DNA of 64,000 nt, from positions 105,265,683-105,329,682 of the forward strand of contig NC_057718.1 of the NCBI RefSeq assembly GCF_004010195.1, read 5' to 3'. The translations under genes and the position numbers were made by a program. The notes beneath the pieces were generated by a model, which was not told where the DNA came from, searched no databases, and saw only the letters and a program-made list of their open reading frames with translations. Below are positions 18,690-61,619 of this stretch, one piece after another (position 1 is the stretch's first letter; the number at the start of each line of letters is the position of its first letter). This DNA is from Chiloscyllium plagiosum (Eukaryota).

Positions 18690-18749
18690 TAAAGGGAAAG
18701 CTATGAAACCCTTGGCTGAAGTAACAAAAAGCTCAGATTCCTTGAGTTC

Positions 18750-19420
18750 TCCCGGTGCGGGGGGGGAGGGGGGAAGGAGTGGGGAAAGGGGGGGTGGGGG
18801 GAGAGGCCGGTTGCCCGCTCTCACCTGTCGCCATGGTGCCGCTGGGCGCGAGCCGGGACAGCCAGCTCCCGCTCCCTCTCAGGCGGGACTGGGGCACCGG
18901 GAGCCGGCCCCTGGAGGCGGCACGGGCGGGGCGGGGCGGGGCGGGGGAAACTGACAACCGGCCCCGCCCCCGGCGCGCCGCTGCAGCCAGGCGGTGAGCG
19001 CGGCAGAAAACGCGCTCCCGAGGCAGGAGGCGCCGGGCGCGATGCGCGCTCCCGTCCCCGGGGGCAGGGTCCGGTCTCAGATCACGGCCTTACCGCCCTC
19101 GCAGTTTGACCTCTGACGGGGGAGAGGACGCCCCGTGAAGCGGGGAAGTCCGGATCAGGGTTTGAGGGGGGTGTCCGGCTGGGAGGGCGGGGGGAGTGGC
19201 CGGGCGGGGGAGGGGAGGGGGTCCGCGTCTCTGGGATTGAAGGGGGTCCCTGATCCCGCTCGCGCTCCCACCTTCGCACTCCGGTGGACAGCCAGCTGAT
19301 TAGTCCCCGCCCCCTCTTGCATTCCTATCGGTTCGCCGCAGCGACGGACAGGCGGTACAGCCTATCAACGATCGGCACGTCGGCCTCACGTCAGACGTGG
19401 GTGAAGGAGAGATGAGAGAT
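18750..19420 (-). promoter_or_regulatory. UGP2: CpG island / UGP2 promoter with tandem GC boxes
   Basis: Very GC- and CpG-rich; tandem GGGGC repeats (Sp1 boxes) at ~18924-18946; CRE/ATF-like CACGTCAGACGTGG ~19387-19400. Confidence 0.8.
18825..18834 (-). CDS. UGP2: UGP2 coding first exon (ATG GCG ACA G)
   Basis: ggcaccATGG Kozak followed by ACAG|gtgaga, inside the CpG island. The phase-1 end matches the phase-1 start of the exon at 7513. Confidence 0.75.
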
Positions 19421-21904
19421 GGGAGATGGGGGATGGGGGATGGGGGAGGAGTGGGCCGTTCAGCTGTTGGTGTGAGGCGAGGCAACATCCGAGGAGCAAA
19501 AGTCCTTCATCAGGAATAGAGGCAGGAAGCCTCCAGGGTGGGGATCGCATGTGTTACTCAGTCTACACTTCAGGAGAGTTCAATGGGAGACTGTTTCTTA
19601 TGTTGCATCACGCTTTAGAAATTCAAAGTTAATATAATATTTTAAAAGAATGTTAAAGAGAGTGAACCAGTGTATGCATTGAGTGAAACCAAACAGTATT
19701 GTACTGTCTATTCAATCTTAGGAATAGTTCTGCCCTAGTTAGGATAAGGATAAGCTCCTGAGGGAGCTTGAAAGTGTAGATGTGGAAAGGATGTTTCCTT
19801 TTGTTAAAGAATCTAGAACTAGGGGTCAAAGATTAAAAATAAAGGGACACTCAATAAGGAGCCAAGGCTTGGTGTGGATTGGAGTCTACGTGACAGTGTG
19901 GTCTGGGGTTGGAAGGCCATTGTCCTGAACTATTATTTCTGCAAAGCTGAACTTTTTACTTCTCTATTTCCTAAGATCTTGTAACTAAAGAAGCTGTACC
20001 TAGGTATCTTTCTACCTAAGATGCTGCTATAAATGGTGATTTATAAATGTTTTACTGTCCTCATTTGAGTAAGTGACAATAAAGCTAATTCAATTAAGAT
20101 GGAGATGAGGAAACATTTTCTCTCATAGGATTGGGATTCTTTGGCATTCCCTTCCTCAAAAGTCAGTGGATGTGGAACCTTTAACATTTTTTCTTAGGCC
20201 AAGGTAGATAGATTCTTAATGATGATGTGGATAAGCGAATATCTTTGTTACACAGTAATGTAGAAACATAGATGATAGGATCAGGAGGAGGCCATTCAGC
20301 CCTTTGAGCCTGCTTCACCATTCATCACAATCATAGCTGATCGTTCAAGTCAATAGCTTAATCCTGCTTTCTCCCCATAACCTTTTATCCCTTTGCCCCA
20401 AGTGTTACATCTAGCCGCCTCTTGAATACATTCAATTTTTTGGCACCAACTACTTCCTGTGGTAATGAATTCCACAGGTTCACCATTCTTGGTGAAGAAA
20501 TGTCTCCTCATCTCTGTCCTAAATGGTCCACCCTGAATCCTCAGACTGTGACCCCTGATTCTGGATACACCGTCATCAGGAACATCTTCCTTTCATCTAC
20601 CCTGTCTAGTCCTGTTAGAATTTTATAAGTCTCTATGAGAACAGAGTTGACATTGAAAGCATTTTAGCTTTGATCTTGTTGAATGGAAGAGCAGACTTGA
20701 ACAGCCTACTCTTCTGGATCGTTGTTCGAATGAGAGAAAGAAACATTGTCTTGTGATGGAAAGCACAAATTCCAATGTCAATATAATTATAATGTAATGA
20801 TTGATGTAAATACAAACCTTTGTAACTGAGTTTCTAAGAAAATTAAGAGCAAAGTACAGTGTAAAGACAGTCTTTAAATTGATTTAATTTATATATTACC
20901 ATCTGTCTGAGCATTGTCTGACACACCTCTGTGGCCATGGCCATGGCCATCATTTAATGAAGTGCTTTTTGAACCTAGACACGAGATCCGCAGGTGAGTT
21001 TACACATAGGTTATTATTACAGACCAAGGGGAGAATCAGCACATTGATGTTAAATATTTTATATTCAACCTGTTGAGAAATGTTATTACACACATCTGGA
21101 GCAGGTGGGATTTGAACCCAGGTCTCCAAGTCCAGGGGTAGCGACACAGCCCCTGCACATTCATTTAAGGAAACTTATTCAGACACAGAATTTACATGAG
21201 GTTCAATTTAAAGGAAATTGTCACAATGGGAGTGTGGAGAGATATATATACATAAATCCTTTTGAAAGATTCCTTGCCCTGTGATTTGTCAATTGGCAGG
21301 AACAAAACAAAAATCAGAACAAAAAAATCATCCATTTGGAGACCTGAGCTGACTGGCTCTGTCACCTGTGTAGCTACGTGATACATTGTAACCAGAGTTT
21401 TTTCTGATAGCAATCCTTACTTTACTAATTCAGAACCAAGTACAATATTTCCTTAATCACTGAGGTGTGACAGGATCTGAAATTGTGATTGGTGGAATCT
21501 GGGGTATGGCTTAAGATATTTCATTGTCCTTAAGCCTTCTGTAAAATGACACTATGTTCTTCCAAAGAATGCTATTTAGTCAGATGCTCTGCCTGTTTTG
21601 TTGTGCCCTTCAGAAGCAATCCAACTTGGGGAATCGGAGCTGCCACATGCATTAATCATCTGCCAAAAAAAAAGCTTTGATCACTTGTCCCTGTAAATCA
21701 AGTTGTGATGTTAAATCCTCTTGTGAGAAAATCCAGAATTAGGAATCACTGAGGGTCCTCTATTTACAATGGAGATGAGAATTAGTTTTTTGACAGAGGG
21801 TCATGAGTCTTTGGAACTGTTTTCCTCTAAACATGGTGGAATGCTTGAATATTTTTAAAGCAGAAGTAGGTAGAATCTTGTTGAGTTTGGAATTAAAGGT
21901 TTTT

Positions 21905-41090: not shown

Positions 41091-41096
41091 TTTATT
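41091..41096 (-). terminator. MDH1: Candidate MDH1 polyadenylation signal AATAAA
   Basis: First AATAAA on the minus strand, ~180 nt after the stop codon. Confidence 0.5.
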
Positions 41097-41272: not shown

Positions 41273-41398
41273 TCAAATACTTGACAGAAACTCAGAGGCT
41301 GTTTCTTTCTCCTCAAGCAGCTCTTTGGCAGTAACTTTCAGCTTTTCACAGGAGAAGTCACTGATTTTCAGACATTGCACAATATCCCAAGTTTTATT
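41273..41398 (-). CDS. MDH1: MDH1 exon 9 (last coding exon) [41 protein letters not shown]
   Basis: Acceptor ttccag|AAT, ends at TGA. Joined exons give an uninterrupted 334-aa ORF, the same length as human MDH1. Confidence 0.96.
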
Positions 41399-42781
41399 CT
41401 GGAACAAAAGGCAGATGATTAGTAAACCCCTTTTAAAGACAGTAAAAAATATTTCATACAGTATCTCTAAGATCAGCCATTGTGCAGTTATGATACTTTT
41501 TTCCCTTTGTTCTTTCATGGGATCTGGGAACCTTGGCAAGGCTGGCATTTGTTGCTCGTCTGAAACTGCACTTGAACTGAGTGGCCAGTTGGCCATTTCA
41601 GAGGGAAGCTAAAATGTCAGCCAGGTTGCTGTGGGTCTGAAGTTATACGTGGGCCAGACTGGTAAAAGATAGAAGATTTCCCTCCCTTAAGGATTTTTAG
41701 AACACTCGTTAATTTTTCATCATCTTTGTTCTTTATCATTTTTAGTTTGGAGCTGTAAACTCAGTTGATGACAACCGTTGGACTGTGAACTTCAGGCGCT
41801 TTCTTTAAAAAAAAAACTAAACCAATAAGTTTGTTCAGGAGGCCAGCCTGGAAGGTAACTGCATAATGATCCCTGTTTACAGAGAAAAGTCTATAAACAT
41901 TTCAGTTGGTGGATGAATTATGATCAACAGATGTTTGGATATAGACTAATGCTAGTCAGTCTGACAAAGAGAAACCAAAGCTTGAATTGTTTTTGAATTG
42001 TGATTTAGTCAGAAGGATTGTGCTGGTGAAAGATTTAATTACTCGATGGATGTCCTCTTATTATCAAGATATTGGAAGTCTGGAGAATAGATTTTCAGTT
42101 AAGTATAAAATGAATATTCTTGAACCTATTGGAAGATATTTACAGGCATCAGGGTCATCAGAAACCAAGCAAGATACAATCCCTTGTGTCTGAGATTACA
42201 GATCATGGAATAAACATTAACCGTGCATACATCTTTTGAATTTGGGGAGGGACTAGAATCAAAGAAGATTGGGCTTAAGTCATAGATGTTAATTAGATTA
42301 CCTTATTGCTCAACTTTGCTCTGCTAAAGTTACTATATTATTAATTTGTTAAATCTCTTCCAGCTATAAATCTGGTGTCTTGTATTGGTTTTTCAAAAAG
42401 TATGTTTAGGTACCATTGGGGTCAGTTGAGGATCATCAAGTATTTTAATTTTATTGTGTTTCAAATACAGAGATAGGGAGGCTGATTTCACTTGGTTGTG
42501 TTGTAATAAGGGAACTAGTCATCCAAATGGGAGTTTACAACATGTCTCACAGTCACTACTTGATTAATTTTCAGTTTCGATGTTATGAATGGAATCTAAA
42601 TTCATCAAGTTGCTGCTGTACTGAGTCCCTGGAACATTTGCCAGGGGTTCTGAATGACTAAATTATTGATGTGAATACTTCATGTCCATCTGCCCCCATG
42701 AAATATTTAATTAAAACAGATGAAATATCCAAATGGTGCAGAGACATTTAACAAAGGGCAACATGTTGCTTAACAGCTTAC

Positions 42782-42871
42782 CTTGATTTGCACTGGGAAC
42801 GAAAAAACCAGGTCATTGGGAACACCATATGGGTTTCCATCAGAAATCACTCCCATGGAAACCCATTCATC
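42782..42871 (-). CDS. MDH1: MDH1 exon 8 (90 nt) [30 protein letters not shown]
   Basis: Splice sites tacag|GAT and AAG|gtaagc; [10 protein letters not shown] motif. Confidence 0.97.
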
Positions 42872-42999
42872 CTGTACAAAAAAAAGTCAGATAAAACAAA
42901 AAACTGCAGAGCTCAACTCACAGAGAAAGCAGAGTTAACATTTCAAGCCCACTTACCCTTCTTCAGAAGGTGAAGGAAGAATCAGAGTTTCCTACCTAC

Positions 43000-45865
43000 C
43001 TCGAGTGTGGCTATATTCAGATGGGGGTGTGTGCATGTGCTGTGCTGTTCATGTGGCAAGTGCCATGCACATGTATGGATGGGTTGCAGGGACAGCCAAA
43101 GCGATGGTGATATAAAAGTAAAGGCTGAGGTTGGCACAATAGATAAGGGGAGCAAGTCTAACAGTCAAAGCAGAGAAGAGTTTGGCAAAGAACGAGGTAA
43201 GACTGAAATTAAACTTCATTTACTCCATGCTAGAGGTCTGACAGGGAAGACTGAACATAGAAAGTCCCATGTTGCCAACCACGCCCTATTAAATGATTTG
43301 GATGTGAACATAGGAGGTATGTTAGCTTGTTTGCAGATGACACCAAAATAGGTGGTGGTGCAGTGGACTGGTGGTTATCTCAGAGTACAGCTGTTTGCAG
43401 GTAAAGGGATGTCTGGCAAGTGAGAAGCTTTCAAAAAAATGAGACAGAATTCAGAGGGGTTAGGTTCCTGTTAGAGTGATGGGTAAGGCTGGTAGGTGTT
43501 GGAAATAATGAATGGAGAGAGATATTGAGCTTCTGGTCAAGAATAAGATAGTGGTGTATATCAGGTACAGACAACTGGGATCAAGTGAATCTCTTGAAAA
43601 GTATAAGGGGAGTAGGTGCATTCTTAAGAGGGAAATCAGGAGACCAAAAAAAGGACACAAGATAACTTTGGCAGATAAGGTTAAGGATAATCCAAAACAG
43701 ATTCTACATGTATATTAAGGGCAAAAGACCAACTAGGAAGAGAATAGGGCCCCTTAAAGATCAATGAGGTCACCTACGTGTGGAACTACAGGCGATGGGA
43801 AGAGCTACCAAACAAATATTTTGCTTCAACATTTACTGTAGAGAAAGTCATGGAAGCTTGGGAACTTAGGGAAATAAATATTGATGTCTTGAAAACAGTC
43901 CATATTACAGAAGAGGCGTTGGAGATCTTAAAGTATAAGAGGTAGATAAAATCTCTAGGACCTAATCAAATGTATCCAATGACATTGGGGAAAGCTGGGG
44001 AAAATTTGCAGCGCACCTAGCAGAGATATTTGTATCAACGACAGCCACAGGTGAAGTGTTAGAAGACTGGAGGTTGGTTACTGATGTACCTTTAAGAAAG
44101 GCTATAGGCAAATGCCCGGGAACTATAAACCAGTGAGACTAATGTTAGCAGTGGGCAAGTTGTTGGAAAGGATTCTGAGGGACAGAATTTACATCCATTT
44201 GGAGAGACAAGGACTAATTTAGGGAAAGTTAGCATGATTTTTGTGTGGGAAATCATGTCTTGCAAAGCTTGATTAAGTTTCTTGAGGATGTGACGAAGAT
44301 GATAGATTAGGGCAGAGCGGTAACGTTGTCTACACAGACTTTAGTGAAGGCTTTGATAAAGTTCTGCATGGTAGACTAGTCAGTAAAGTTGCGAGCGTGG
44401 TGCTGAAAAAGTACAGCAGGTCAGGCAGCCTTCGAGGAGCAGGAGAGTCGATGTTTTAGGCATAAGCTCTTCATCAGGAATGAGGCTAATGAAGAGCTTA
44501 TGCCTGAAACGTCGATTCTCCTGCTCCTCGGATGGTGCCTGACTGGCTGTGCTTTTCCAGCACAACACTCTCGACTCTGATCTGCAGTCCTCGGTTTCTC
44601 CAATTTAGTAAAAGGAGATCATGTGGGTTTCAGGGAGAACTTGCAAACTGGATACAAAACTGATTTGCTGGTAGGTGACGGAGGGTTGTTTCTTGGACTG
44701 GAAGCCAGTGACCAGTGTTCCACAGGAATCGGTGCTGTGTCCATTGTTTTTGGTCGTTTATATAAACAATTTGGATGAGAACATAGGAAGCATGGTCAAT
44801 AAGTTTGTGGATGACACCAAAATTGTTGGCATACAGAGGAACCTTGATTATCTGAACATCAGTTATCCGAAGATGATCTCAAGGTCCCGATAGAACCTTT
44901 ACATCAAAGATGTGTTTCAACACTGATCACGTCTTTTGTTTACAGTGATTAAAAGTGAACTTTGTTTACTGACATGCTGCCAAGAGCAGTCCTGAACATC
45001 GATGGGAGCCCAGGCATACTGATCTCCTGCCCTCTCTCTCTTTCCCCACACTTTCCGTGGAGTTCAACATAGGGGTATACCCTAAACCCCCACTCCCCAG
45101 ATAATCTCTCCACATTGTTCACTGAAAATTGGGTCACAGGTAGACAGGGTCATACAGAAGGCACACTTGCCTTCATTGCTCAGACTAGAGTGTAGGAACA
45201 AAACCAGAAATTGCTGGAAATGCTGAGCAGATCTGGCAGCATCTGTGGAGAGAAATCAGACTTAATGTTTTGGGTCCAGTGACCCTTCCCCAGAACTGGG
45301 TATAGGAGTTGGGACACATTTGCGGTTGTACAGGATGTTGGAGAGGCCACTTTTGGAGTACCGTGCGCAGTACTGGCAATAGGAAGGATATTAAATTGGA
45401 GAGGATGCAAAGATACACTAGGATATTACTGGGACTGGAGGGTTGGAGTTATAAGAACAGACTGGATAAGCAGAGACCTTTTTTTCCACTGGAGCGTGGG
45501 GAGGTTGAGGGGGTCATCTTTTAGAGGTTAATAAAATCATGAGAGGCATAGATAAAGTGAATAGCAAAGTGTTGGGAAGTTAAAAACTAGAGGGCATAAT
45601 TTTAAAGTGAGAGGGGGAAGATTTAAGAAAGGACGTGAGCAGCAACTTTTTCCATACAAAGGATGATTCCTTTGTGGAATGAACTGCCAGAGAAAATGGA
45701 AGATGCAGATAGCTACAACATTTAAAAGTCATTTGGACAGGTACATGAATAGGAAAGGTTGAGAGAGATACGGGCCAAAGGCAGGCAGACATGACTAGTT
45801 TAGTTTGGGAAAGGTGGTCGGCATGGACAAGTTGAACCGAAAGGTCGGTTTCCTTTATGACTGTT
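43000..45865 (+). mobile_element. Rearranged CR1-type LINE in MDH1 intron 7 with several small nested insertions
   Basis: KREIRRPKKGHKITLADKVKDNPK; VPQESVLCPLFLVVYINNLD..KFVDDTKI; 3' tail ~45860. Confidence 0.8.
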
Positions 45866-45913
45866 TTACAAAGCAACAGGATTAGATCTTACAGTACACA
45901 GGAATAATGAAGG

Positions 45914-45950
45914 GTTCCTGACGAAGGGCTTATGCCCGAAATGTCGATTC
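45914..45950 (+). ncRNA. Minimal hammerhead ribozyme motif (PLE-associated)
   Basis: CUGACGA-A-GGGC-UUAU-GCCC-GAAA-UG-UC-GAUU. Confidence 0.55.
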
Positions 45951-46258
45951 TGCTGCTCCTCGGATGCTGCCTGACCTGCTGTGCTTTTCCAGCACCACTC
46001 TCTAGACTCTGATCTCCAGCATCTGCAGTCAGCATGGAAACTCACTTTCCCCTATGGGAGTAATGTTTGCAATGATACCCATGTAGCAAGGTGTAAACTG
46101 GGGAATAAACTTGTTAGTTAGTGTGGGTGGAAGCAGAAAATAAACCATCTAAACAGAGACAGAGCATTTTAAATGGATGGCATATCCAACAGATCATTCA
46201 ATCCTAGGAGACAGAGTTAGTGTAAAGGTAGCCAAGTTCAAGTAATTCGTTAACATAC

Positions 46259-46372
46259 CTCAGCAGTACCAAACCAGAGGGTCCTCATGTGATCAGAAAT
46301 GGCCTTAGCAGCAGACATTGCACTTGAGAGTTTCCGTGCCTTAATCACTGCAGCTCCACGCTGCTGCACAGT
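46259..46372 (-). CDS. MDH1: MDH1 exon 7 (114 nt) [38 protein letters not shown]
   Basis: Splice sites cag|ACT and GAG|gtatgt; near identity to vertebrate MDH1. Confidence 0.97.
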
Positions 46373-48088
46373 CTGTTGGCAGGGGGAAAAAAAGTTTAGT
46401 TTTCCAACTGGTTACATGCAGCAGGTTGTGTGCAATGCAGGAATCGCTTTCTTCTTCCTCACTCCTTCTGGAAAGTTTTGTTGGGCTATGGTAATGCTGG
46501 GGCACTTCACAACGTCTACCGTAAGAAACTAAATACATGCAAGTCTATGAACAACAGAGAAAACAACTGGATGGCAACAAATATTTAGAAAACTATCAAA
46601 AGTAAGCACAGGAAATAATTTCACACAAGTATTTGTGAACTGTACATTTTTTAAAACAAAGAAGCTCAAGCCTGACATCGAAATGAGTAATTTGAAATTA
46701 AGCCACAAACAAACATTGTTTTGAACCACAATCAACCTCAGGTGAATGGACAATGTCACATGAACAAAACATTAGCAACATACAGTTACAAATACATGAA
46801 GGCAACAATGTTGAGGGATCTGATAAAAACCATTTGGTGCTCTATTTAAAATCAAAATGCAAAATCTGTCTCATAACATGTTTCTGGACAGAAGGAAACA
46901 TTGTTATTTTTAAGTTATTCATTTTTCATAACCTCTGGGAAGACATTTGCTGCATTTAGTGTAGCATTCAAAGAACAGATTGCAGTTTCTGTTCAGTCAC
47001 AGAATTCAATGCAAATGTAAAGTGAACATGCTCACCGAGCTGGGAATTTGGTTTGCAGATGTTTTGTCCCCTTTCTAGGTGACATCCTGTGTGCTGTGGA
47101 GCTGCCTGTGAAACATTACTGCATTGTGTTGGTTGGAATTTAAAGTGAACATTTAGCTGACACAGCTTAATAAATGTAGAGTGCTTTGGTTAACGGTACT
47201 TCTAAATATCCTTTGCCTGAGAAAACACAGTTCTGGCATGGTTTCCGATATCCTTCATCTGTTCAGAAATCAATGGGAATATTCCTTAGCTCTCCCCAAT
47301 TCCAATTTCTTAAGTTGCACACAAGCACGAGTCAGGAACTGTCAAAATGAAATAAATAGTACCCAGAATGCTTAACAGTTTGGGCAATATTCGAAGGGTT
47401 TATGTCAGAAACGTCGATTCTCCTGCTCCTTGGATGCTACCCGAGCTGCTGTGCTTTTCCAGCACAACACAACTCTGATCTCCAGCACCTGTAATTCTCA
47501 CTTTCTTCCAATATTTGAAGGGGTGGCAAAAGAAGGCAAAAGGGATAATGTTTCATGTGGAGATGTGAAGCATTAACTGTAGCTGTCCAGCAATGCTGGC
47601 AGATCGGTTGAGTATTTCTGACATTCTTTGATGATTCCAACATTTGCAGCATTTTTGCTTTTGCAGTCAAAATAAGATTTTTTTTGTGCCAAGTTTAGAA
47701 TGATGCAGATTAGGAAGGCAGCTAACTTAGATCCTATACTATACTGAGTTATCAGTGTCAGGTACACATTCACACAAATAATACTTGGTGAAAGTTTGCA
47801 TTGGAGAAGACAAAACAGATTTCAGCTGTTAAGACCAATGCAGGTGGCCAACTGACATCTCCTGTCAAATACAACAACGACCACCTTAGGGACAGTCTGG
47901 CAAGATTATTCAATAGGAGATCAAAACCTTGCTCTGCACAAAATAACCCAGTCATAATATCCACAGCACTGTCAGTTTTAAGTAAAATTCAACGAAGTGA
48001 ATGCGTGTCTTTGAAAAACCACAAAAGAAATTGAACTTGGAAGGTCTTCACAATAAACATTATGAAAACGAGTTCTGAAGTTACTTAC

Positions 48089-48265
48089 AGTGATAAAGTC
48101 ACCCTTCAGCCAGTTATCATCCTTAACAGCATCATAGATACTCATTTCCTTCCCTTTAACTTTGACAGTGGCATGAGTAACATCTGGATACTGAGTTGAA
48201 GAATGATTGCCCCAGATGATAACATTTTTCACATCATTGGAAGGCACTCCCAGTTTGAATGCAAT
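48089..48265 (-). CDS. MDH1: MDH1 exon 6 (177 nt) [59 protein letters not shown]
   Basis: Splice sites tag|ATT and ACT|gtaagt; catalytic His in WGNHS. Confidence 0.98.
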
Positions 48266-48399
48266 CTAAATATAAAGCTTAATTTGTAATAAATCCAGTT
48301 AAAGAGAAGAAACAATTTACTTAAATAAACAAAGATAAATTATTCTGCAATCTTTAAATTATTTATCATACTGCTTATTTGGTCTGAATTCAATCTCAG

Positions 48400-49180
48400 A
48401 TTCAAATTCATCCAGCACAGAAATGCCCTTTGGCCTAGAGTCTGCACCAACTTAACCACCATTAAAAGGGCACTAATCCCAATTTCCTACACTTGTCCTA
48501 TATCTGTTAGTGTTATGATATTCGAAGTGCCCATCCAAATTTTTTTTTATAAAGGTTGTAAGGTTTCTAGCCTCCATTACCTTCCCAGGCAATGCATTCC
48601 AGATTCCCACCACCTGCTGAGTGAAGCTTTTTCTCCAAATCACCTGTCTTTTACCCTAAAACTAGGGTGATCAACTTCTCAACCAAGGGGGAGCAGATGC
48701 TCTCTATTCACCCTGTCCATACCCCTCAATCTTATACACTTCAATCATGTACCCCCCTCAGTCTTTCCTGCTCTAAAGAAAACAATCCAAACTTATCTAG
48801 TTTCTCTTCATAGCATAATTGTTCCATCCAAGGTAACATCCTGGTGAATCTCCTCCGTAGCCGCTCATCCTTCCTGTTGTGAGGTGACTAGAATGCACAC
48901 ACTACTCCAGCTGTGACCTGACCAACACACTTTACAACTCCAACATTACCTCCTTGTTCTTATACTCTATGCCACACTGATGAAAGCAGATGTCCCATTT
49001 GCCTCCTGAACTATCCTGTTCACATGCTCTGCTGATTTCAGGGATCTGTGAACAATTACCCCAAGATCCCTCTGTTCTAAGCTACAGAGTGTCCTACCAA
49101 TCATCAAATACTCGTTTCTTCTGCCAAACGTTACGTCACATTTATCAAGGTTAAACACCATTTGCCTATCTCAACATCTT
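48400..49180 (-). mobile_element. CR1-type LINE 3' fragment
   Basis: FNLDKCDV..EQRDLGVIVHRSLK. Confidence 0.75.
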
Positions 49181-49490
49181 CCTGTAATCTAAAATCACCT
49201 TCACTAACTCATCACTTTTTGGAAATCTGCAAACTGTTCTACTACAGACAACATTCAAATTGTTAATTCCATCTAGGATATTACTTCAAAATGACGACCA
49301 ACCTTGTACAAAATTAACAGACAGTGAGGTTTTGCCTTTGTCCATATAATCAGAAACTTTGCCAAAGATTAAAAGCAGGACTGTAGACATTTGAATATTG
49401 GCAAGTTATAAAATGTAAATGTAGAGACAACCCCCATTCTAAGTGAAGCTCTCCAACAAGCCTCATTTTAAAAGCAGAGTTTAGACATAC

Positions 49491-49613
49491 CTGAGCTTTT
49501 GCTCGGTTATGATCTAAGCGAGTCAGGCAAGAGAAGTTCTCTTTCGGAATGGATGGGGCACACTTAATTGCAGTCAAACAATTGGTGTTGGCTGGGTTGC
49601 CCACAACAAGAAC
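49491..49613 (-). CDS. MDH1: MDH1 exon 5 (123 nt) [41 protein letters not shown]
   Basis: Splice sites cag|GTT and CAG|gtatgt; VGNPANTN and LTRLDHNRA active-site motifs. Confidence 0.98.
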
Positions 49614-50349
49614 CTGCAAGAAATAATTTGATTTATTATACAGTACCAGTAAAAAATCCAGTAAGATAGACAGTAACCACATGATTTGTTTCATCGGGCC
49701 AAATGTGACACACATACATTGTAGATTTCTGCAAAATGAGGAGCAAAGGACTTGCACATGTTTTGACTGCAGGTTAAATGATTCCTTACTTGCAAACAGT
49801 TGGAAGTTTGTGGTTTGCAGCTCTCTGCTACCTTGCCTACAAACCTGACCTTAGAACATATTGGCACTGCTCAGCTCTCGAAAGATTGCACATCCCCCAA
49901 ATGAGGTGAATGAAACCTTACAATATTTTTAAAAACGTGACCCAATAGTACTTCTGTAAATTTAACTCTTCTGGAAATACATTAGTTTTTTTTTTAGGTC
50001 TTGCTGTACTAGGCATAGACCTCAATACCTTGTACAAGTTAACAAATGTCTTTTCTTAGAGTGGCCTTGAGCAAGCAGGTGTATTGACGCTAGTAGGTAT
50101 CTAAATTTAATAGACAAGCATATGACATATTTCAAGAAGTTTACTCAAATTTAAGTGGTTAAAAAGGGACTCATAGGTGGCTTATTAGATTAATACCTGG
50201 GAAGAGATCACCTTATAATGAAATTATGGAATTCAGAAGAGCATGGGGTGATTTGAATCAAGTTTATAAGGTCCTGAATAGACCTGACAATCTGGATGAG
50301 GAAAGAACAAGGAACACTGAAGATACGGGTCACCCTTTTAACATTGAAA

Positions 50350-52300
50350 CATAGAAAATAGGAGCAAGAGGAGACCATTCAGCCCTTCAAGCCTGCTCTG
50401 CCATTCACTACGTTCACTGCTGATCATCTGACTAGACAGCCTACTCAAGGTCACAGAGTAGGAAAAGCCTAATCCTGCTTTCTCTCCATAACTTTTGAAC
50501 CCCTTGCCCCAAGTGCTATATCTAGCTGCCTCTGGAATACATTCATTTTGGTATCAACTACTTCCTGTGGTAATGAATTCCACAGGCTCACCATGTTTGG
50601 TTGAAGAAATATCTATCTCCAGCCTAAATGATCTACCCCAAATCCTCAGACTGTTACCCGTAGTTCTGGACCCACCCACCACTGGGAACATCCTCCCTGC
50701 ATCTACCCTGTCTAGTCCTGTTAGAATTTTACAAGTCTCTGAGATCCTCCCTCATTCATCTGGACTCCAGCGAAAGTAATCCTAACCTAGTCAATCTCTC
50801 CTCATACATCGGTCCTGCCACCCCTGGAATCAGTCCTGTTAACTTTCGCTGCTCTCCCTCGAGAACAAGAGAGCATCCTTCCTCAGAAAAGCAGACGAAA
50901 AATGCACACAATACTCTAGGTATGGCCTCATGAAGGCCCTGTATAACTGAAACAACACATCCCTGCTCCTGTACTCAATACCTCTCAACGAAAGCCAACA
51001 TACCATTTACCTTCTTTACCACCTGCTGCACCTGCATGCTTACCTTCAGCAACTGGTGCATAAGGACACCCCGGTCCCACTGCACACACCCCGCTCCCAA
51101 TTTACAGCCAGATACTAATCTGCCTTCTTGTTTTTGCTTCCAAAATTAATAACCTCACATTTATCCAAATTGTACTGCATCTGCCATTGATTTGCCCACT
51201 CACCTAACTTGTCCAGATCATGCTGAGGGATCTCCGCATCACGTCACAGTTCACCCTCCCACACAAGTTGGTATCATCTGCAAACTTTGAAATGTTACTT
51301 TTTGTTCCCTCATTTAATTCATTAATATATACTGTGAATAGCTGGGTTCCCAGCACTGATCCTTGTGGCACCCCATTAGTTACTGTCTGCTAATTTGAAA
51401 CGGTTCCATTATTCCTTCTATTTCCTCTCTGCCAACCACCTTTTAAAATCCATCTCAATACACTTCCCCAATCTTGGGTGTTTTACTCTTGCATAATAAT
51501 CTCTTAAGTGGAACTTTGTCAAACACTTTCTGAAAGTCTAAATATACTACATCAAGTTATTAGTTAGATCTTCACAGAATTCCAACAGATTTGTCAAATT
51601 TCTTTTAGATTAGATTCCCTACAGTGTGGAAACAGGCCCTTCGGCCCAACAAGTCCCCACCAACCCTCTGAAGAGACCCATTTCTCTCCAATTAATACAC
51701 CTATCACTATGGGCAATTTAACATGGCCAATTCACCTGACCTGCACATCTTTGGACTGAGGGGGGAAACCGGAGCATCTGGAGAAACGCACGCAGACACG
51801 GGGAGAATGTGCAAACTCCACACAGACAGTCACCCAAGGCTGGTGTTGAACTTGGGTCCCTGGTGCTGTGAGGCAGTAGTGCTAATCACTGAGCCACCAT
51901 GCCACCCTAAAATTCTACCATTTGCTGCCGCAGGATTTGAACACATGTTCCCATGACATGAGCCAAGTCCTAAAATTACTAAGCAAGTGACAACACCACT
52001 AGGCCATTGCCTCCCCACTTTCCCCTTCATAAATCTATGCTGATGCTGCCACTGCTCTCCAAAAGTTCTGCCAGAAAGTCTTTGATAATGAAATTCGTGA
52101 ATTTTCCCCAATATCGATATTAGCCTTACCGATAAGAGTCAGAGATGTACAGCATGGAAACAGACCCTTTCCCTGTTTTCTCTCAATCTCCCTTTTTGAA
52201 TATTGAACATTAGCTACCCTCCAATCTGTAGGGACTGCAGAATACTGAAGATAACCACCAATGCATCCACTATTTCTACAGCCACTTCCTTAAGTACTCT
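50350..52300 (-). mobile_element. CR1-type LINE with nested SINEs
   Basis: CR1 3' tail at ~50350; GATRISAG/SKFADDT-type RT-coding segments at ~51270-51370. Confidence 0.7.
51605..51907 (-). mobile_element. HE1-type SINE
   Basis: Same head, V-domain and tail as 21905-22212. Confidence 0.88.
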
Positions 52301-53370
52301 GGAATCTACTTTGGGAAAAAAAAAGGAGGAATTCTTTCTCTCCTCTCTCTCCTCCTTCTGCTCCTAGTTTAGATGATCTCTTTATTCAATTTTTTTTTAT
52401 TCCATCGAATTACATAGTAATAAACTGCATCTGTCAACGACAGCACCAATTATCCCTGTCCTTCTGAATCAAGGAAGCATCTATAGAGAAAATCTTAATA
52501 TTTGACAAAAATGACCAGATGGTTCTGATGAAAGGTTACTGACATGAAGAGTTCACAGTTTCTCTCTAAGCAATTTGAGTTTATACTTCACAATTCCAAC
52601 AATCAAGTGCTTTGGGACCTGTTACATTATTTCTTTCTCATTTATTTAATTTATTCATCTTTTATTAAAATGAACTTGGCATGCTTTATTTCCAATCGCC
52701 ATTGGATTGATTTATTTCAAACGTAGCTTCAGTCCCAAAAGTGATCCACGGAGTACCCCTCTCAATCTCATTCTAGTCTGTAAGACTTCAATCAGACCTT
52801 CTAAGCCAATTGTCTGCCCTCTGCTATCAATTAGCCTATTTTCACTTTTGAAAACTCTTTCCACTAAGAACCATAAGGACAATCCAAGTATATAAATATT
52901 AATCTTTGTTTAAATAAGGTCTCTAACAAGTTATAATATCCAAATACAGAAATAAAAGTACAGTGGATGCTGGATCTGAAATAAGCTCAAACATTCTCAC
53001 AAAAGGTCATTAGCCTGAAATGCTTGCTTGATTCCTTTCCCCAGAGGTGATGCCAGAGGTGTTGAAAAGTTCTAGTATTTTCTTTCTACTTTCCAAACGC
53101 TCATTCACTGGACCCCTACATTAATTCTATGCCATCCACTAGATTCCTATATTAACTCAATTTTTCTGACAGTTGGTGAGGCTTATAGCTCCCAGGGTGT
53201 TTTGTTTAACAGCAGTTTTTGACTTAGCTACTTCCTGTTCCTTAGGAACCTCTCCTGAATTTGGGAAGATTAAGAAGAAAATGGCAAAACGTTACTAGTC
53301 CAAATCAAATACACAGTTACACATTCAGTATGAAGATGGTGGCATTTAACAAATTCCAAGGCTTTGTCAC

Positions 53371-53546
53371 CTTGACTGACTTCTTGGCAAACTTGTCCAA
53401 AGAATATCCCTGGGATTTGAATATGTTGGCATTAGCTTGGAGCAGGTCCTTCCTTTCCATGCCCTCCCGTCTTGGCATAGAGCCCACCAGAATCGCAACA
53501 TCAATGTCCTTGAAAGCTTCTTCCTCTTTGTCAGTTGCAATGACTT
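53371..53546 (-). CDS. MDH1: MDH1 exon 4 (176 nt) [59 protein letters not shown]
   Basis: Lies within ORF 53317..53574; splice sites cag|AA and AAG|gtgaca; substrate loop [11 protein letters not shown] intact. Confidence 0.97.
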
Positions 53547-54775
53547 CTGCAAGGAACATATAAAGTAAGAGCAATATGATTGCTCACCATGCAGTGAGTT
53601 GAATCCCTGGAACCTCCCTCTTAACAGCATTGTAGACGTTCCTACACCCCAAGGCCTGCAGTAGTTCAAGGCAGCAACTCATCACCACCATTACCAGGGC
53701 AATTAGGCACAGGTGATGAATGCCGATTTAGCTTGACATCCCACCCCTCAGAAATTAATTTTTAAAAATGCACTCCTAACGTATTAAGCTACTTGAAGCA
53801 GAATTTCCAAAGTGTAATTCCAGGTTGGTTTGATTTGAGTTGAGGGGCCATAGAAAACAGAAAAGCTTAATAGCTTATTTCTTGGTGGCTGTTGTACCAT
53901 TCAATGAGATCACGGCTGAACATCAGTAACAAGTAACACATTACAATTAGCTTCAGGGCCTCAGGGCCTGGGCAGGGAGAAAACGTCATTTCCAAACGGA
54001 ACTAGCTTTCAGTGACAGCTGCAAGATGAGGTTTTAACAGGATTGTACATGTCCAAATCACCTATAAATACTCACTTGACAATCAAAAATGAAGAATATT
54101 GATCAAGCATGGTCAGGGATGTGTGTCAGGAACAATTAAAAAGGGAAACAAAACTAAGGATTTTAAAAATAAAGCCCACAGCTTTGATTCAGATGGTCTG
54201 TAACCCATGTTTAATGTATGGCAGATACCTAATAGTTACAATCTGTTCCTAAGCTTGAACAGTTTTTTTCTCTTCCAAATAAGCAGTTCCAGATTATAAT
54301 GTCACAAGAAAACACGTAGTTTTTAGCTACTTGGCAAAGTAAATAAAATCAACAAAAGCTGTGCATCAAATCTCTCGATCAGCAGTTGTGAAATGCCGAT
54401 GTGCAATGAATACTGATCGGACAATCACATCTGACCTTGTATTAAAGATCCATAAACATGGGACAATCATTGTACAAGAGTAATTCCAACGAATTACCAA
54501 ATAGCCTAACAGATCTACAATCAGAATTCAATTCCCAGTTGCACAATTAGTATTTAAAATTCTAGCTCTCACCGACTTTCAATTCAGCAAAATTTCAACT
54601 GACAGCTGAAACGATGGAGATGTCAATGTAAAGGAAGCTCAGATTAAATGTGCATTACACTAAATATGCATTGTACCAAGAGTTAAACAAGTTACTTCAA
54701 GTAGAGAAAAGGAAACGAAGAGCATAAATAAGACTCAATTTCAATTGGAAAGTAACATCCAACTTAGCTACTTAC

Positions 54776-54872
54776 CACACACCAGTTGAAAAGCACAATC
54801 CCGGATTTCCATCACAACACCATCCAGTACTGACATCATTGGTGCAATATCGAGCAGCACGAGGATGATGGG
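54776..54872 (-). CDS. MDH1: MDH1 exon 3 (97 nt) [32 protein letters not shown]
   Basis: Splice sites aag|CCC and G|gtaag; homologous to human [27 protein letters not shown]. Confidence 0.96.
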
Positions 54873-55641
54873 CTTTGGGAATTATATTAAAACATAATTC
54901 AGTACTACACTACATGGACACTTTGTCACTCCACATTACTCATTACACTTTAGAAGAATTATTTTATTTGGAGACAACACTCCTTTGGCATTTTTCAATG
55001 AGGATTCATGGTCCACACAAAAATGCACACATTCTTGTCTGTTTCAAGATAAACCTTTGAACACAAGGCAATTTCATAGCTGTGCAGGTAAAGAAGCTAT
55101 TTCCAATTCTCATCCATTGCTACCTGCATTAAACTTCGCAACCCATTAATTGGTGCAATATTCTTAAGATTCAGTGACTACAGTGCCCCTGGTGAGGGGG
55201 AGATGCAAACTAATTTATAGCTTTGCCTTCTCTTTGAGGGGGTCGGCGTGGGAGCAAAAGCAAAAAGAAAACCATTACTTTGTGGTGGAAAAGCTGTCAA
55301 CTGATTTAACAGATTGCCAGCAGTAGATACACGTTCAGGTTCCCTGAACGCTGCAGAAACTAGCAATTCATCTGGGTCAATTTGCTTTATCTGATTACTG
55401 CCTTTTGTTCTCTCCTACTATTACCAAGCAGCTTCTTAAAAAAAAATAAAATTTATGAACACTGTGCTGCTAGAGTCATACAGCATGGAAACAGACCCAT
55501 TGGTCCAACTCATCCATATTAACAAAGTTTCTCAAACAAAACTAATTATTGCAACACTCCATTATTTTAATAAAACAAATGAAAAGACTGATTGTTTAAT
55601 CGACTGTTTATATATATATTTTTAAATACAGTAAACATTAC

Positions 55642-55740
55642 CTGGTCATTTCCAAAAACATCCCCCTTTGCAATGTTGTAGATAAGTGAATAGGCAATCT
55701 GACCAGCAGCACCAGTCACAAGAACTTTAATCGGCTCTGC
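55642..55740 (-). CDS. MDH1: MDH1 exon 2 (99 nt) [33 protein letters not shown]
   Basis: Splice sites ttctctccag|GCA and CAG|gtaatg; contains the Rossmann-fold GAAGQIA motif of cytosolic MDH. Confidence 0.97.
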
Positions 55741-56586
55741 CTGGAGAGAAATTGAACAATGGGAAACTGTGGATGATTCAGAGGCACATTAAAAAATTAC
55801 ATACGATTTTTCAAAGCTTACCCTATCTGTAGGTTCCAGGAAATTAAGCTTTCTTCCACCACTGTATCCATTTCAAATAAACAATCTATTAAGCTTCAGT
55901 ATTAGAGGCCTGACGTTATCTACAAGCGCAAAATGTTTACAAATATTTTTTAAAAATCTTTGAGTAATTAAACTCATCTGCAAATCTGTATTAGAATGAA
56001 TTTCTGTGTAGCCACACACATAAAAGAGGATTAAAGCTAACATAAAAGTTTGACGAATTAGCTTTGAAAACAGCTTGTATTCAGAGCAGTGAAATTAATT
56101 TCTCTGAAAAACCATTCATTATTTTTAGAACTTTGAAACAAAATCACCATGTGTTAAAATAGAATGACTTAAAGATCACATTCTTATGAAGGAAATTGAC
56201 CTTACATACAATATGTGTTTTTTCTTAGTAGCATTTCAGCAGCAACATTGTCCAAGGTCATTTGACAGATAGAGGATACACTACTGGATCACATTACTCA
56301 AATTGTTTCAACACCAGCTCAGTGGAAAATACATCAACTCCACAATCCCATCCACTACCACACCCCAAAAATCTCCCCAATTAGTTGATATTCAGTATTG
56401 ATTCGGTGTGGGGAGGGGTTTGGTCAGAGGAATGTTTCCACAGTCAAATTACAGGAGGACATGCAAGAGATGCCTTAGTGAACCTTAAGGAAAAGAAAGA
56501 TGCTGTTTCTGCATAGTCTTCTGCTAAATCATGAAGTACCTTACTGCACTCTTACTACATTTCCTCACATGACAAAGCTTGGCTTT

Positions 56587-56883
56587 TTAGATTAGATTCC
56601 CTACAATGTGGAAACAGACCCTTCGGCCCAACAAGTCCACACTGACCCTCTGAAGAGTAACCCACACAGACCCATTCCCTCTGACTAATGTACCTAACAC
56701 TATGGGCAACTTAGCACAGCCAATTCACCTAACCTGCACATCTTTGGATTGTGGGAGGAAACCCACTCAGACACTGGGAGAATGTGCAAATTCCACACAG
56801 ACAGTCGACCAAGGCTGGAATCAAACCTGGGACCCTGATGCTGTGAGGCAGCAGTGCTAACCACTGAGCCACCATGCCGCCCC
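56587..56883 (-). mobile_element. HE1-type SINE
   Basis: Same head, V-domain and tail. Confidence 0.88.
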
Positions 56884-57703
56884 AAAATTATCTTCAGAGT
56901 ATGTTGCTTGACTATTTTGCTTTTGCATATGCAGTATATTAACCTTGCTAATTTAAAAAAAAACATTCTGTAGGTTAGGAACTGCCACCTTCAACTCACA
57001 AGAGACCAAAAAAACTACAGATGCTGGAATCCAAAATAGACAGGCAGGAGACTGGAAGAATATAGCAAGCCATGCAGCATCAGGAGGTGGAGAAGTCGAC
57101 ATTTTGGGTGTAACCCTTCTTCAGGACTGGGGGTGGATATGGAGGGAGCTACAGATAAAGGGGGTGGCGCGGGCAGGGTGGTGAAGTGGGAGTAGATGAA
57201 GACAGGTAGAGGGTAGAAGCTGGTTGGCCAATGGGAGGAATGAATCCAGTTGGTGGCTGAGAGGGGTGGAGGGAGGGGGAGGGGCAGGGAAGAGAGCCAG
57301 GGGATGGGGAGGGAGGTTATTTGAAATTGGAGAACTCAACATTGAGTCCTCCGGGCTGTTGGCTGCTGAGGCGGAAGAGGAGGTGTTGCTCATCCTATTT
57401 GCAGTGTGCTTCATTGCAACAATGGAGGCAAAAGATGGTCATGTCAGAAAGGAAGTGGGTAAGAAAATTAAATTGGGTGGTGACTGGGAGGTCCGTTCGG
57501 TGCTTGTGGGCCCAGCTGAGATACTTAGCGAACTGTTCCCCAAGTTTATATTCGGTCTCCCAGATGTAGAGAAGCCCACACCTGATGCAGTAAGCTAGGT
57601 TAGAAGGGAGGTAAAAACAATGACTGCAGATGCTGGAAACCAGATTCTGGATTAGCGCTGCTGGAAGAGCACAGCAGTTCAGGCAGCATCCAAGGAGCAG
57701 CGA

Positions 57704-57739
57704 AATCAACGTTTCGGGCAAAAGCCCTTCATCAGGAAT
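57704..57739 (-). ncRNA. Minimal type-I hammerhead ribozyme motif (PLE-associated)
   Basis: Minus strand reads UAUUC-CUGAUGA-A-GGGC-UUUU-GCCC-GAAA-CG-UU-GAUU: intact core, 4-bp stem II and palindromic ACGU stem III; stem I is weak. Confidence 0.65.
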
Positions 57740-57788
57740 AAAGGCAGAGAGCCTGAAGCGTGGAGAGATAAGCTAGAGGAGGGTGGGG

Positions 57789-58151
57789 NNNNNNNNNNNN
57801 NNNNNNNNNNNNNNNNNNNNNNNNNNNNNNNNNNNNNNNNNNNNNNNNNNNNNNNNNNNNNNNNNNNNNNNNNNNNNNNNNNNNNNNNNNNNNNNNNNNN
57901 NNNNNNNNNNNNNNNNNNNNNNNNNNNNNNNNNNNNNNNNNNNNNNNNNNNNNNNNNNNNNNNNNNNNNNNNNNNNNNNNNNNNNNNNNNNNNNNNNNNN
58001 NNNNNNNNNNNNNNNNNNNNNNNNNNNNNNNNNNNNNNNNNNNNNNNNNNNNNNNNNNNNNNNNNNNNNNNNNNNNNNNNNNNNNNNNNNNNNNNNNNNN
58101 NNNNNNNNNNNNNNNNNNNNNNNNNNNNNNNNNNNNNNNNNNNNNNNNNNN
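57789..58151. other. Assembly gap (N run) within a PLE
   Basis: Run of n. Confidence 1.
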
Positions 58152-60632
58152 CAGGCAGTCACGGAGGGAACGGTCTTTGCGGAAGGCGGAAAGGGGTGGG
58201 GAGGGAAATATATCCCTCGTGGTGGGGTCTTTTTGGAGGTGGCGGAAATGTCGGCAGATGATTTGGTTTATGCGAAGGTTGGTAGGGTGGAAGGTGAGCT
58301 CCGGTTGCAAGGGAAGGTACCTTGGGGTTCAGGGGTGGTTGGTGAGGAGAGTGCGCAAACCAAGGATTGTTGATGGGAACAGTCCTTGCAGAAGGCAGAG
58401 AGGGGTGGAGAGGGGAAGATTTTTTTTGTGGGGGAGGGGTCTATTTGGAGTTGGCAGAAATGTTTAAGGGTGATGTGTTGGATGTGGAAACTGGAGGTGT
58501 GGTAGGTGATGACAAGGGGGGCTTTGTCTTTATTGCGTTGGGAAGAGGAGGGGGTTTAAGAGCAGTGGAACGGAAACCTGGGGTGATGCGCGGAGGGCTG
58601 TCTGGATGACAGAGGGAGGAAAAGCACGATGCTCAAAATAGGTGAGCACCCGGGATGCTCAAGAGGAAGGTCTTCTCACCTGAGCAAATGCAGCGGGTGA
58701 GTTGGGAAAATGGGATGAAGTTTTTGCAAGATACTGGGTGGGAGGTGGTGTAGTCCAGGTATTTATAGGAGTCTGTGGGTTGGTTGTAAACATCTGTTTG
58801 GAGACTGTTGCCAGAGACGGAGGTGGTGAGGTCCAGAAAGGGGAGGTAGGTGTCCAAGATGAACCAAGTGAATTTGAGGGTGGGTGGAAGTTGCAGGTGA
58901 AGTTGATGAACTGCTTCAGTTCAGCCCGGGTGCAGCGTCCTGCACCCATGCAGTCATCAATTTAACAGAAGAGGAGCTGGGGCCTCCTCCATTACTGCAA
59001 ATTGGAGGGACACCACCTCATCTTCCGCCTGAGCAGTCTACAGCCTGGAGAACTCAACACTGAGTTCCCTTCCACCAACTGGATTCATTCCTCCCATTGA
59101 CCTACCAGGTCGTACCTCTACCTGTCTTCACCTATCTCCACTATCCCGACTTGACTACCCTGTCCCCGCCGGCCCCTTTATCTGCAGTTCCCCATACACC
59201 CAATCCCAGACCTGAAGAAGGGTTACACCTGAAATGTTGACTTCTCCACTTCCTGATGCTGCCTGGCTTGCTGTGTTCTTCCAGCCTCCTGCCTGTCTAT
59301 CTTCAACTCACTGCCCACATAAAATTTTATTATATGTGAATAATACCAAATTGCAGAAACCGTATTGAAATTATTTCTGTAACCTGTAGGCAGTTGTGTT
59401 TTGAATATCAAGACTTGGTGCACCTTGATGACACCATCCAAAATCAACTTTGACAAAAGAACCACAATAGTTACACAAAAATAAACAAATCTTGAGGTCA
59501 TTCCATTTCGACCACACCTTCAGAACTCTCAGAAGGAATCTTCCATTGAAAGCAAGGTATACAGACAATCAGAAATCATTTCATCCAAGCCTTACATAGG
59601 CCTTTCAATGTCTGAACTTCAAGACAATTATAGCCAGTTACAGTTAGAATCAAGATACAAATCTGACTCTGATCTCTTTGCTAACTAAACCGACATGCTT
59701 TTTGCTTCCTCCTTCAAAATAACTTCTCTAAATATCAAATTCTCTCCTAATGGGAAAAAAATCTCTTAAGTCTATTGCCAGTTTATAACATTTCCTTTCT
59801 CAGTAAAAAGATCCTCCATTTAATAATATGTTCTACTTTGCATAAGCATCCATGATTTTCAATCATTAGTTTCTCAAAGATACACATTCTCAAAACTGAC
59901 TGTCTAAAAACTCTGGAAATTCGACACATTTAGCATGCCATGCATCATCCTTCCAGTTAAAGTTAACCTACCTAGGCAATTCAGCAGAGTTGCAAATGGC
60001 AGTGGACTTATCATCTGATTGACCAGTTGTACACCAGACTAGTCCCACACACAAATTAAAAATTTGACCCCACCTGTATAACCCACTGTCCAAAGTCAGA
60101 CAAAATAACCTTGCTTTCACATCCAGCTGATTTGAGAGGAACTTGCAGCATTCCTATTCATCTGACCTTGGAGGTGAATATTGTGCGTCATTTCCAGAAT
60201 CTAATTCTTAACTGAAGGTTAAATAGCACACATTAACCATCAACATCTCAGTGAAAGCTCAGAAACCCAATGTATTTTTAGTTTGGTGTTTTATCTTGCA
60301 AGCTGAAACAAACTATTTCACGTTACTGAGCCAGAGGGAGCCATTTCTAAATCATGAACTACCCATTAGTTAATGCCTACCTATCGCAGTGGCCTAGATA
60401 TCTAGTTAAATTTTAAAAAGCTAAAGGTTTACAGTGAAGAAATAACACAAACTAGGTCCAAATGACATTGAGAAATATTGTGTGCAATATACAACAGCAA
60501 CTGAGACACTGACCATTATACATCAAATAATAGTTGACATCTATAAGTACTGACCATTGAGGTGAATGTAAAACAGTGAGAGAGATACTGACCATCCTAA
60601 GCTCTACATAAAACAGTGAGACAGATACTAAC

Positions 60633-60635
60633 CAT
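60633..60635 (-). CDS. MDH1: MDH1 exon 1 coding part (ATG only)
   Basis: Minus strand reads gcagcaaaATG|gttagt at the edge of a CpG-rich region. Vertebrate MDH1 exon 1 contributes only the Met, and exon 2 begins in phase 0. Confidence 0.8.
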
Positions 60636-61420
60636 TTTGCTGCTGCAGGTTGACCTTCGCTGCTGTCTATCGACCGCCAAATGCTAGAAGACAGTCACAT
60701 GACCGTACGACGTTAACCGCGCGTTGCGCCCTGGGCGATGTAGTCTTGTTTCCATTGAAATAACGCTAACATCCTGATAGCTTCGAGACGGTTGGACTAC
60801 AATATCCATCATGCATCGCGCCGTACGGCCGTCTCTCACACTCAGTATCCCACCGCAAGGTGCACATCCGGTCATGGAGAGCAAACAGTGCCAATGCTCA
60901 ATTGACCATCCCTATCACTTCCAAGGAGTAAAAGCAATTGGTGTTGGCATGAATTATTTATTATCTTTGTTATAATAGTACATGTGTGCTTCGCGAACGG
61001 CTGGCTGTCTTCACAAGGTGGTTATGATTTATATAACGGGCGGATGGATTGTAGACAGTCTAGGGAAAGGTGTGTTTCCGGCTGCCCCGGAAGGGATGAT
61101 ATAAGTGGTTGCTAAGAGACGGAGAGCAGTGCGGCTGTGTGAGGTAAAGATCTCCTGGATAAAGGGCTTGGTGTGATCTGGAGTGTGTATGTGTAGGTTG
61201 TGCAGGTCCTGCAAGCAGAGAGTTGTCAGAAATGGGTCCGGTATCTGCAGGGGGTCAAGGACAGCGGAGCCCGGGGAGGTGACCTTCCCCTTCCCCTTCT
61301 CCAGGAAGCAGTTAATACCGGTCTCAGGTCCTCAGGCATGTCGCCGCGACCCCGTGGGGAAGCTGGTCCCCTCGAGGTGGTGAAGAGCTTCTTCCTTCCC
61401 TCGATCACTGATCGCCTGGT
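60636..61420. promoter_or_regulatory. CpG-enriched MDH1 promoter, probably bidirectional (divergent WDPCP expected by synteny)
   Basis: Local CpG enrichment; GTCACATGAC E-box 60694-60703; RFX X-box-like GTTTCCATTGAAAT 60748-60761 and GTTGCTAAGAGAC 61108-61120; opposed ETS cores TTCCGG/CCGGAAG ~61076-61093; plus-strand donor GAG|gtaaag at ~61143. Confidence 0.6.
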
Positions 61421-61619
61421 CATGTACAAGGAGGATAGAATATCAATCGTGATCTGAAATTGTTGAACCCATTACTGAGTACAGGACATTAAGTGATTAA
61501 TTGGAACCTGAAGTTCTGCCCATGATGTGCCCTCATGGTTTTCTCCCACTATATTCTTCATCCTCTTCAATTACCCTGAAGTAATTGTTTAATGCGTGGG
61601 TTTGTCTGGTTAGCACAAT

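Follow-up and report, generated by a model that had tools for sequence, protein, structure and literature searches.

Repeated start-plus-donor units at the MDH1 exon 1 boundary of the shark Chiloscyllium plagiosum: probable latent 5' splice sites left by a decayed tandem duplication

Introduction

At the boundary between the first exon and the first intron of the cytosolic malate dehydrogenase gene (MDH1) of Chiloscyllium plagiosum, a start codon followed directly by a 5' splice site is present not once but four times in close succession. A preliminary description of this locus proposed that the choice among the four donors sets the number of upstream open reading frames (uORFs) in the leader and thereby dials MDH1 translation. 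Does the array serve such a regulatory purpose, or is it what remains of a local duplication whose extra donors go unused? We addressed this within a 64 kb window (the whole stretch of DNA that was analysed), combining gene and protein comparison, repeat analysis, placed RNA data and published work on donor choice.

Results

Identity and exon structure of the gene

The spliced open reading frame is identical to XP_043552650.1 of Chiloscyllium plagiosum over its full length (334 of 334 residues), and 329 and 326 residues are identical to the C. punctatum and Hemiscyllium proteins, respectively. The frame is intact, with both Ldh_1_N and Ldh_1_C (PF00056 and PF02866) above cut-off; exon 2 has cytoplasmic MDH chains as its best PDB matches and exon 4 retrieves MDH1 proteins of sharks and other vertebrates. 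Judged by these matches, the gene encodes cytosolic malate dehydrogenase, MDH1; it is intact and has nine exons.

All exons lie on the minus strand. Exon 1 (60633..60697) consists of a short 5' UTR and the ATG only, and is delimited by an RNA joint at 55739-60632 (side of 66 in the RNA run X1, described below). Position 60697 is the 5' end of the RNA contig as placed rather than a mapped start site; the X1 bin depth of 26.2 corresponds to an exon end there (19 nt x 382.5/277). Intron 1 as spliced (55741..60632, 4892 nt, GT..AG) leads to the common acceptor of exon 2 (55642..55740), which opens with Ala-Glu-Pro at 55740. Exons 3-9 span 41273..54872, all introns being GT..AG: exon 3 at 54872-54776, exon 4 at 53546-53371, exon 5 at 49613-49491, exon 6 at 48265-48089, exon 7 at 46372-46259, exon 8 at 42871-42782 and exon 9 at 41398-41273. 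RNA contains the junctions of exon 2 with exon 3 and of exon 3 with exon 4. The gene and its first exon are thus as the preliminary description had read them, with the repeated units placed at the boundary of an MDH1 exon 1 that codes for Met alone.

In 87 of 137 fetched proteins Met stands immediately before the exon 2 block; 35 have other N-termini, many of them extensions joined at the start of that block, and 15 lack the motif. This pattern agrees with conservation of an intron behind the start codon. The shark gene resembles those vertebrate cytosolic MDH1 genes whose first exon codes for Met alone in its 334 amino acids and both domains, and differs in its duplicated start/donor boundary. 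Upstream of exon 1 lies a small CpG-rich promoter region (60600..60900, CpG observed/expected 1.0-1.3), and the ratio drops to 0.36 at 60500-60700 and to 0 at 60400-60600.

Four start-plus-donor units and their origin

On the minus strand, ATGGTYAGT occurs with its ATG at 60635 (GTTAGT) and at 60595, 60557 and 60516 (GTCAGT in all three), which upholds the positions first described as well as the spacings of 40, 38 and 41 bp. No further copy was found on either strand of the window. Four occurrences per 64 kb is an unremarkable count (shuffle mean 1.42, with 6 of 100 shuffles reaching four); the clustering is unusual, as three extra units lie at most 130 nt from the first (~5e-10, Poisson estimate). 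Unit 1 (60596..60635) comprises ATG1, which is the real start (-3A/+4G), the used donor 1 (GTTAGTAT) and a 31-nt tail containing an in-frame TAG at 60599-60597 and an ATG-TAG at 60609, both on the minus strand. Units 2 (60558..60595), 3 (60517..60557) and 4 (60477..60516), also on the minus strand, carry ATG2 with donor 2 (GTCAGTAT), ATG3 with donor 3 (GTCAGTAC) and ATG4 with donor 4 (GTCAGTGT), and no use of these three donors was seen.

Units 1 and 2 agree at 25 of their first 27 nt, as expected from the near-identity of ~27 bp reported earlier, and TRF returns an array at 60548-60636 (period 40, 2.3 copies, 77% matches, score 104). When the 9-nt core is left out of the comparison, units 1 and 2 still agree in 22 of 31 tail columns (p=0.0002) and units 2 and 4 in 18 of 31 (p=0.0002-0.0008; 18 of 29 ungapped), and the tails of units 1 and 4 are weakly homologous (p=0.02-0.04). 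The unit 3 tail has no recognisable homology: it matched none of the other tails (p 0.14-0.78) and is indistinguishable from random intron sequence, so it is by its core and its position in the spacing alone that unit 3 is counted in the array. The tails have decayed with indels, and the spacings of 40, 38 and 41 share no common frame. Homology of units 1, 2 and 4 past the core points to a decayed ~40-bp tandem duplication. The proposed origin by head-to-tail copying is thereby upheld for these three units, with unit 3 included by core and spacing only, and on sequence grounds the array is likely a genuine and old tandem duplication of the junction between exon 1 and intron 1, with decay that differs from unit to unit.

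Sliding units 1, 2 and 4 over 59900-61000 in search of additional decayed copies gave top scores at the four known units only. A weak ATG-TCATT at 60468, noticed by eye, was left out of the unit count. Metagenomes scanned with either the unit 1/2 pattern or the exon 1 boundary yielded 0 matches in both cases. A duplication of a dimer (units 1 and 2 giving units 3 and 4), with 51 of 85 columns alike, is possible but unsupported, the unit 1 and unit 3 tails showing no significant similarity.

Units 2-4 share one and the same 9-nt core, in contrast to tails that are ~62% alike or unrecognisable. At a tail identity of 62%, an intact core in unit 4 would arise by chance with P ~0.014, a value that overstates selection because the finding was picked from a genome-wide scan for intact cores. 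That the cores have stayed intact next to decaying tails is the sole hint of selection on the array.

Donor use in RNA

Four of the 24 sequencing runs listed were placed on 53200-61500, and two, X19 and X1, are informative; both are labelled as the best-matching organism. X19 consists of raw single-cell poly(A) reads, of which ~2% of the run was read, and X1 of contigs taken by guess to be RNA. X20 placed no reads, and X2, from another organism, is deep over exons 3-4 with no depth over exon 1 and almost none over exon 2.

A single exon 1-2 joint, 55739-60632 (donor 1), appears among the 15 joints listed, a further 208 being weaker; listed joints have at least 3 reads, and Logan contigs drop rare variants. 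In X19, donor 1 is connected to exon 2 by eight reads with five start places, next to six reads for the exon 2-3 control junction and ten for exon 3-4, so that donor 1 has about the same read support as constitutive junctions in that run. In X1, one unbranched 1267-nt contig (depth 382.5) runs through exons 4-3-2-1 via donor 1 and reaches 60697. Joints to 60592, 60554 or 60513, as expected from donors 2-4, are absent from the 15 joints listed in both X19 and X1.

Read depth over the units sets bounds on their use. The X1 bin at 60402-60678 has a depth of 65.4, of which the donor 1 contig accounts for 64.9; the remainder allows at most 1.0% for donor 2, 0.5% for donor 3 and 0.33% for donor 4, and lies within the intronic background range (neighbouring bins, depth 1-4). 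The corresponding X19 bin holds ~404 letters, of which the eight reads explain up to 376, leaving room for one or two more reads at most; the absence of alternative donors among eight reads gives an upper 95% bound of 31%, or 45% on five starts. A splice-selected uORF dial is therefore unsupported: the second leader isoform on which it depends was not encountered, with donor 1 alone among the joints listed and donors 2-4 held to ~1% or less in X1. The condition named earlier as refuting the dial has two halves, that the donor at 60633 alone be used in all tissues and that the extra units lack conservation; for the first half, exclusive use stands among the joints listed and extends to two informative runs, not to all tissues.

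Upstream reading frames of the hypothetical leaders

Joining any of the four donors to exon 2 does rebuild the same Met-Ala-Glu-Pro N-terminus on paper, and on paper only the resulting isoforms would encode one protein behind leaders that vary in their uORFs. With the 5' end set at 60697, the number of upstream ATGs is 0, 2, 3 and 6 for donors 1-4, and not 0-3 as first proposed, owing to additional ATGs at 60609, 60540 and 60523. The frame that ATG1 opens into the intron reads MVSICLTVLCRA followed by a stop (12 codons) and ends 1 nt upstream of ATG2, exactly as described; ATG1 and ATG2 both have strong contexts (-3A and +4G each). In unit 3, a 13-codon frame from ATG3 closes with a TAA that overlaps ATG4 (TAATG, 60518-60514, minus strand), which mirrors the TAG-G-ATG arrangement of units 1 and 2. 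That the ATG1 and ATG3 frames each stop at the next ATG has chance probabilities of ~0.04 and ~0.12 in post hoc tail shuffles, and unit 2 fails to repeat the pattern.

Calicivirus-type stop-restart, for which TGGGA is the motif, was considered for the TAATG overlap and rejected: TGGGA is absent from the leader and its only copy is at 60852. RNA structure over 60440-60697 is no better than that of shuffles (95 of 200 fold as well; z = 0.0), and Rfam returned 0 matches over 59800-61500 at E up to 1. Just outside the leader, 3 nt 5' of the RNA contig end, an ATG-TGA start-stop at 60700-60695 (minus strand) would constitute a minimal uORF if transcripts start further upstream.

The hypothetical donor 3 mRNA would contain a short uORF1 and then an ATG2 frame overlapping the main frame, out of register, by 28 nt, an order reminiscent of the ATF4-type two-uORF leader as covered in review PMC13631847. 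It differs in that ATG2 lies 1 nt past the uORF1 stop, presumably too close for the usual delayed reinitiation, and in that the donor 3 isoform is unseen.

Donor strength and latent 5' splice sites

Donors 1 and 2 each match U1 at 8 of 11 positions, donor 3 at 7 and donor 4 at 7 plus one wobble, next to 6-9 of 11 for the seven internal MDH1 donors; this match count is a proxy for consensus fit, where PMC3510495 uses PSSM and MaxEnt. Intron 1 holds 12 further donor-like sites with at least 7 U1 matches, so that unused donors are ordinary there.

Latent 5' splice sites, studied by the Sperling laboratory under the term 'suppression of splicing', are described in PMC3510495 as consensus-like sites less than 1000 nt past an authentic donor, separated from it by an in-frame stop and normally unused; stress, or removal of the stop, activates sites of this class. 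Donors 2-4 lie 40, 78 and 119 nt downstream of donor 1, behind a TAG in the ATG1 frame, and share the first four properties: consensus fit (by the above proxy), distance below 1000 nt, the intervening in-frame stop and no use seen normally, the last in two runs whose conditions are not on record. The likeness extends to the sites treated in PMC1524910, which argues that latent-site suppression depends on the first AUG. The MDH1 copies differ from other latent sites in that they come from tandem duplication of a real donor, and in that each has its own ATG and would yield a full-length frame behind uORFs, not only a truncated one. An ATG on each latent donor is the automatic result of duplicating a Met-only exon end.

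Two further sources bear on the competition between such donors. In vitro, when two strong donors compete, the downstream one gains ground once they are more than ~30 nt apart and takes ~100% at 45 nt or more (PMC3413131), and in competition reporters flanking elements can offset U1 complementarity (PMC6280755).

Discussion

We consider it probable that the four units are the remains of a decayed ~40-bp tandem duplication and that donors 2-4 are latent donors in intron 1 without a regulatory job. In favour of this reading, the window's other first-exon-like site likewise has a ~40-bp tandem array close behind it. Proximity to the cap favours a donor, and donor 1 would win as the one that is transcribed first, lies nearest the cap and alone has true exon sequence upstream. 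Donors 2-4 are preceded by U-rich intron sequence, which may contribute to their being passed over. In the mRNA made by any leak to them, ATG1 with its strong context would open the 12-codon uORF; as this uORF ends far upstream of seven later exon junctions, poor translation and clearance by nonsense-mediated decay (NMD) would be expected. According to PMC13631847, reinitiation requires factors to be re-recruited, for which reason reinitiation 1 nt past the stop should be poor. Leak products from donors 2-4 are thus probably NMD targets. With the gene left intact by its first copy, the duplication would have been tolerated.

The equal U1 match of donors 1 and 2 (8 of 11 each) weakens this latent-donor reading. 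Taken together with the downstream-site preference seen in vitro, it implies that context restrains donor 2 or that its product is destroyed. Since NMD would hide products of donors 2-4 in steady-state RNA, their absence lowers the case for regulation and does not remove it, and rare or stress-only use of these donors may occur.

The most serious alternative, though an unlikely one, is regulated unproductive splicing, in which stress- or tissue-dependent use of donors 2-4 would place the full MDH1 frame behind uORFs and lower its translation or send the mRNA to NMD, acting as a dimmer and not as a graded dial. The U1 match of donors 2-4 (7-8 of 11) is in the range of donor 1 and the internal donors, and the frame is rebuilt from each unit's own ATG. 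The cores are intact while the tails decay, both the ATG1 and ATG3 frames end at the next ATG (subject to the post hoc probabilities and the failure of unit 2 given above), and the X1 remainder could conceal a branch of ~1%. Precedent comes from human cells, in which heat shock and hypoxia activate latent donors whose products are NMD targets (PMC3510495). But no junction of donors 2-4 is found among the joints listed for X19 or X1, the load of 2, 3 and 6 upstream ATGs in mixed frames forms no clean ladder, and the leader folds no better than its shuffles. In its specific form, a stress-gated off-switch, heat or hypoxia would shift splicing to donors 2-4, turn the real start into a uORF start and reduce MDH1 output through uORFs and NMD, with the full frame reachable by reinitiation and the cores kept by selection; we hold this form to be equally doubtful.

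Slightly less likely again is that the extra cores act without splicing, as docking sites for U1 snRNP near the promoter that shield intron 1 from early polyadenylation or aid transcription. Protection by U1 from premature cleavage is established. The donor cores are intact from +1 to +6, three poly(A) hexamers lie on the sense strand of intron 1 (59824, 59331 and 58534), and the ATG could be a passenger, since ATG before the donor supplies the -1 G. 'Telescripting' is the term used for such protection in PMC4889658. Docking leaves unexplained why the A and T of the ATG, at -3 and -2 and unpaired with U1, are kept in all four units; donor 1 is itself already a U1 site, and intron 1 offers the 12 other donor-like sites.

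It is more improbable still that each unit serves as a small reserve exon 1 for transcripts starting past ATG1, giving isoforms free of uORFs. Every unit is a complete ATG-donor end, and ATG2 has the strong context that a start would need (-3A, +4G), but RNA depth over the units is background and the CpG-rich region stops near unit 1. A false duplication in the assembly is scarcely credible, as the copies, 62-93% alike, are separated by substitutions and indels, unlike those of a mis-assembled repeat, and the nearest N gap (57789-58151, within intron 1) is more than 2 kb from the units.

In our assessment the MDH1 array is neat but unexceptional, an instance of latent donors arising from local duplication. 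As a natural test of donor choice it has modest value: of two donors with equal U1 match and a separation of 40 nt, the upstream one is preferred in the RNA examined, contrary to the downstream trend in vitro. Were the regulated version true, the locus would illustrate a one-step route by which ATG-only first exons acquire a splice-controlled uORF/NMD switch, here acting on an enzyme of the malate-aspartate shuttle. Genes are known in which the choice of 5' splice site within the 5' UTR adds or removes uORFs (review PMC13631847), and the MDH1 layout would likewise allow donor choice to set uORF content. At MDH1 no alternative isoform is seen among the joints listed. The cases covered in the passages considered involve separate leader elements, and the main text of that review nowhere uses the word 'duplication'. 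In the literature searched, with most subscription papers outside it, no title dealt with splicing of MDH1 in sharks or with a duplication of ATG-plus-donor units, and the passages of PMC4063476 considered contain nothing on exon 1 structure.

Other features of the locus

Within the CpG-rich promoter (60809-60730), two ACTACA-containing motifs stand in opposite orientation at 60744 and 60801, and we take them to be ZNF143-type sites. Such sites typify bidirectional promoters. At this promoter we identified no gene on the opposite strand, and Pfam searches of 50 of the 100 flanking ORFs recognised no neighbouring genes.

Between 56500 and 59300, intron 1 contains many SINE and LINE fragments, and most of the placed reads are drawn to these from other loci. 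The acceptor of exon 3 is AAG (54875-54873, minus strand) with a weak pyrimidine tract, and its junction is present in X19, X1 and X2. In the whale shark (Rhincodon typus), MDH1 isoform X2 is annotated from an internal Met (MMSVLDG), an internal start that presupposes a transcript model lacking the ATG of exon 1.

At the other end of the gene, the stop context is TGA GAA GAC (41278-41267, minus strand), with an AATAAA at 41096. In mammalian MDH1, TGA CTA is a readthrough signal that leads to a peroxisomal extension; the shark stop context is without TGA CTA.

Elsewhere in the window, a CpG island at 18319-19450 (minus strand) includes a first-exon-like ATGGCGACAG followed by GTGAGA near 18833; the gene there may be UGP2, judging from human synteny only. 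Behind this site, the other first-exon-like site of the window, lies a compound 24/41-bp GC-rich minisatellite (18319-18688), so that a second ~40-bp tandem array directly follows a first-exon-like sequence.
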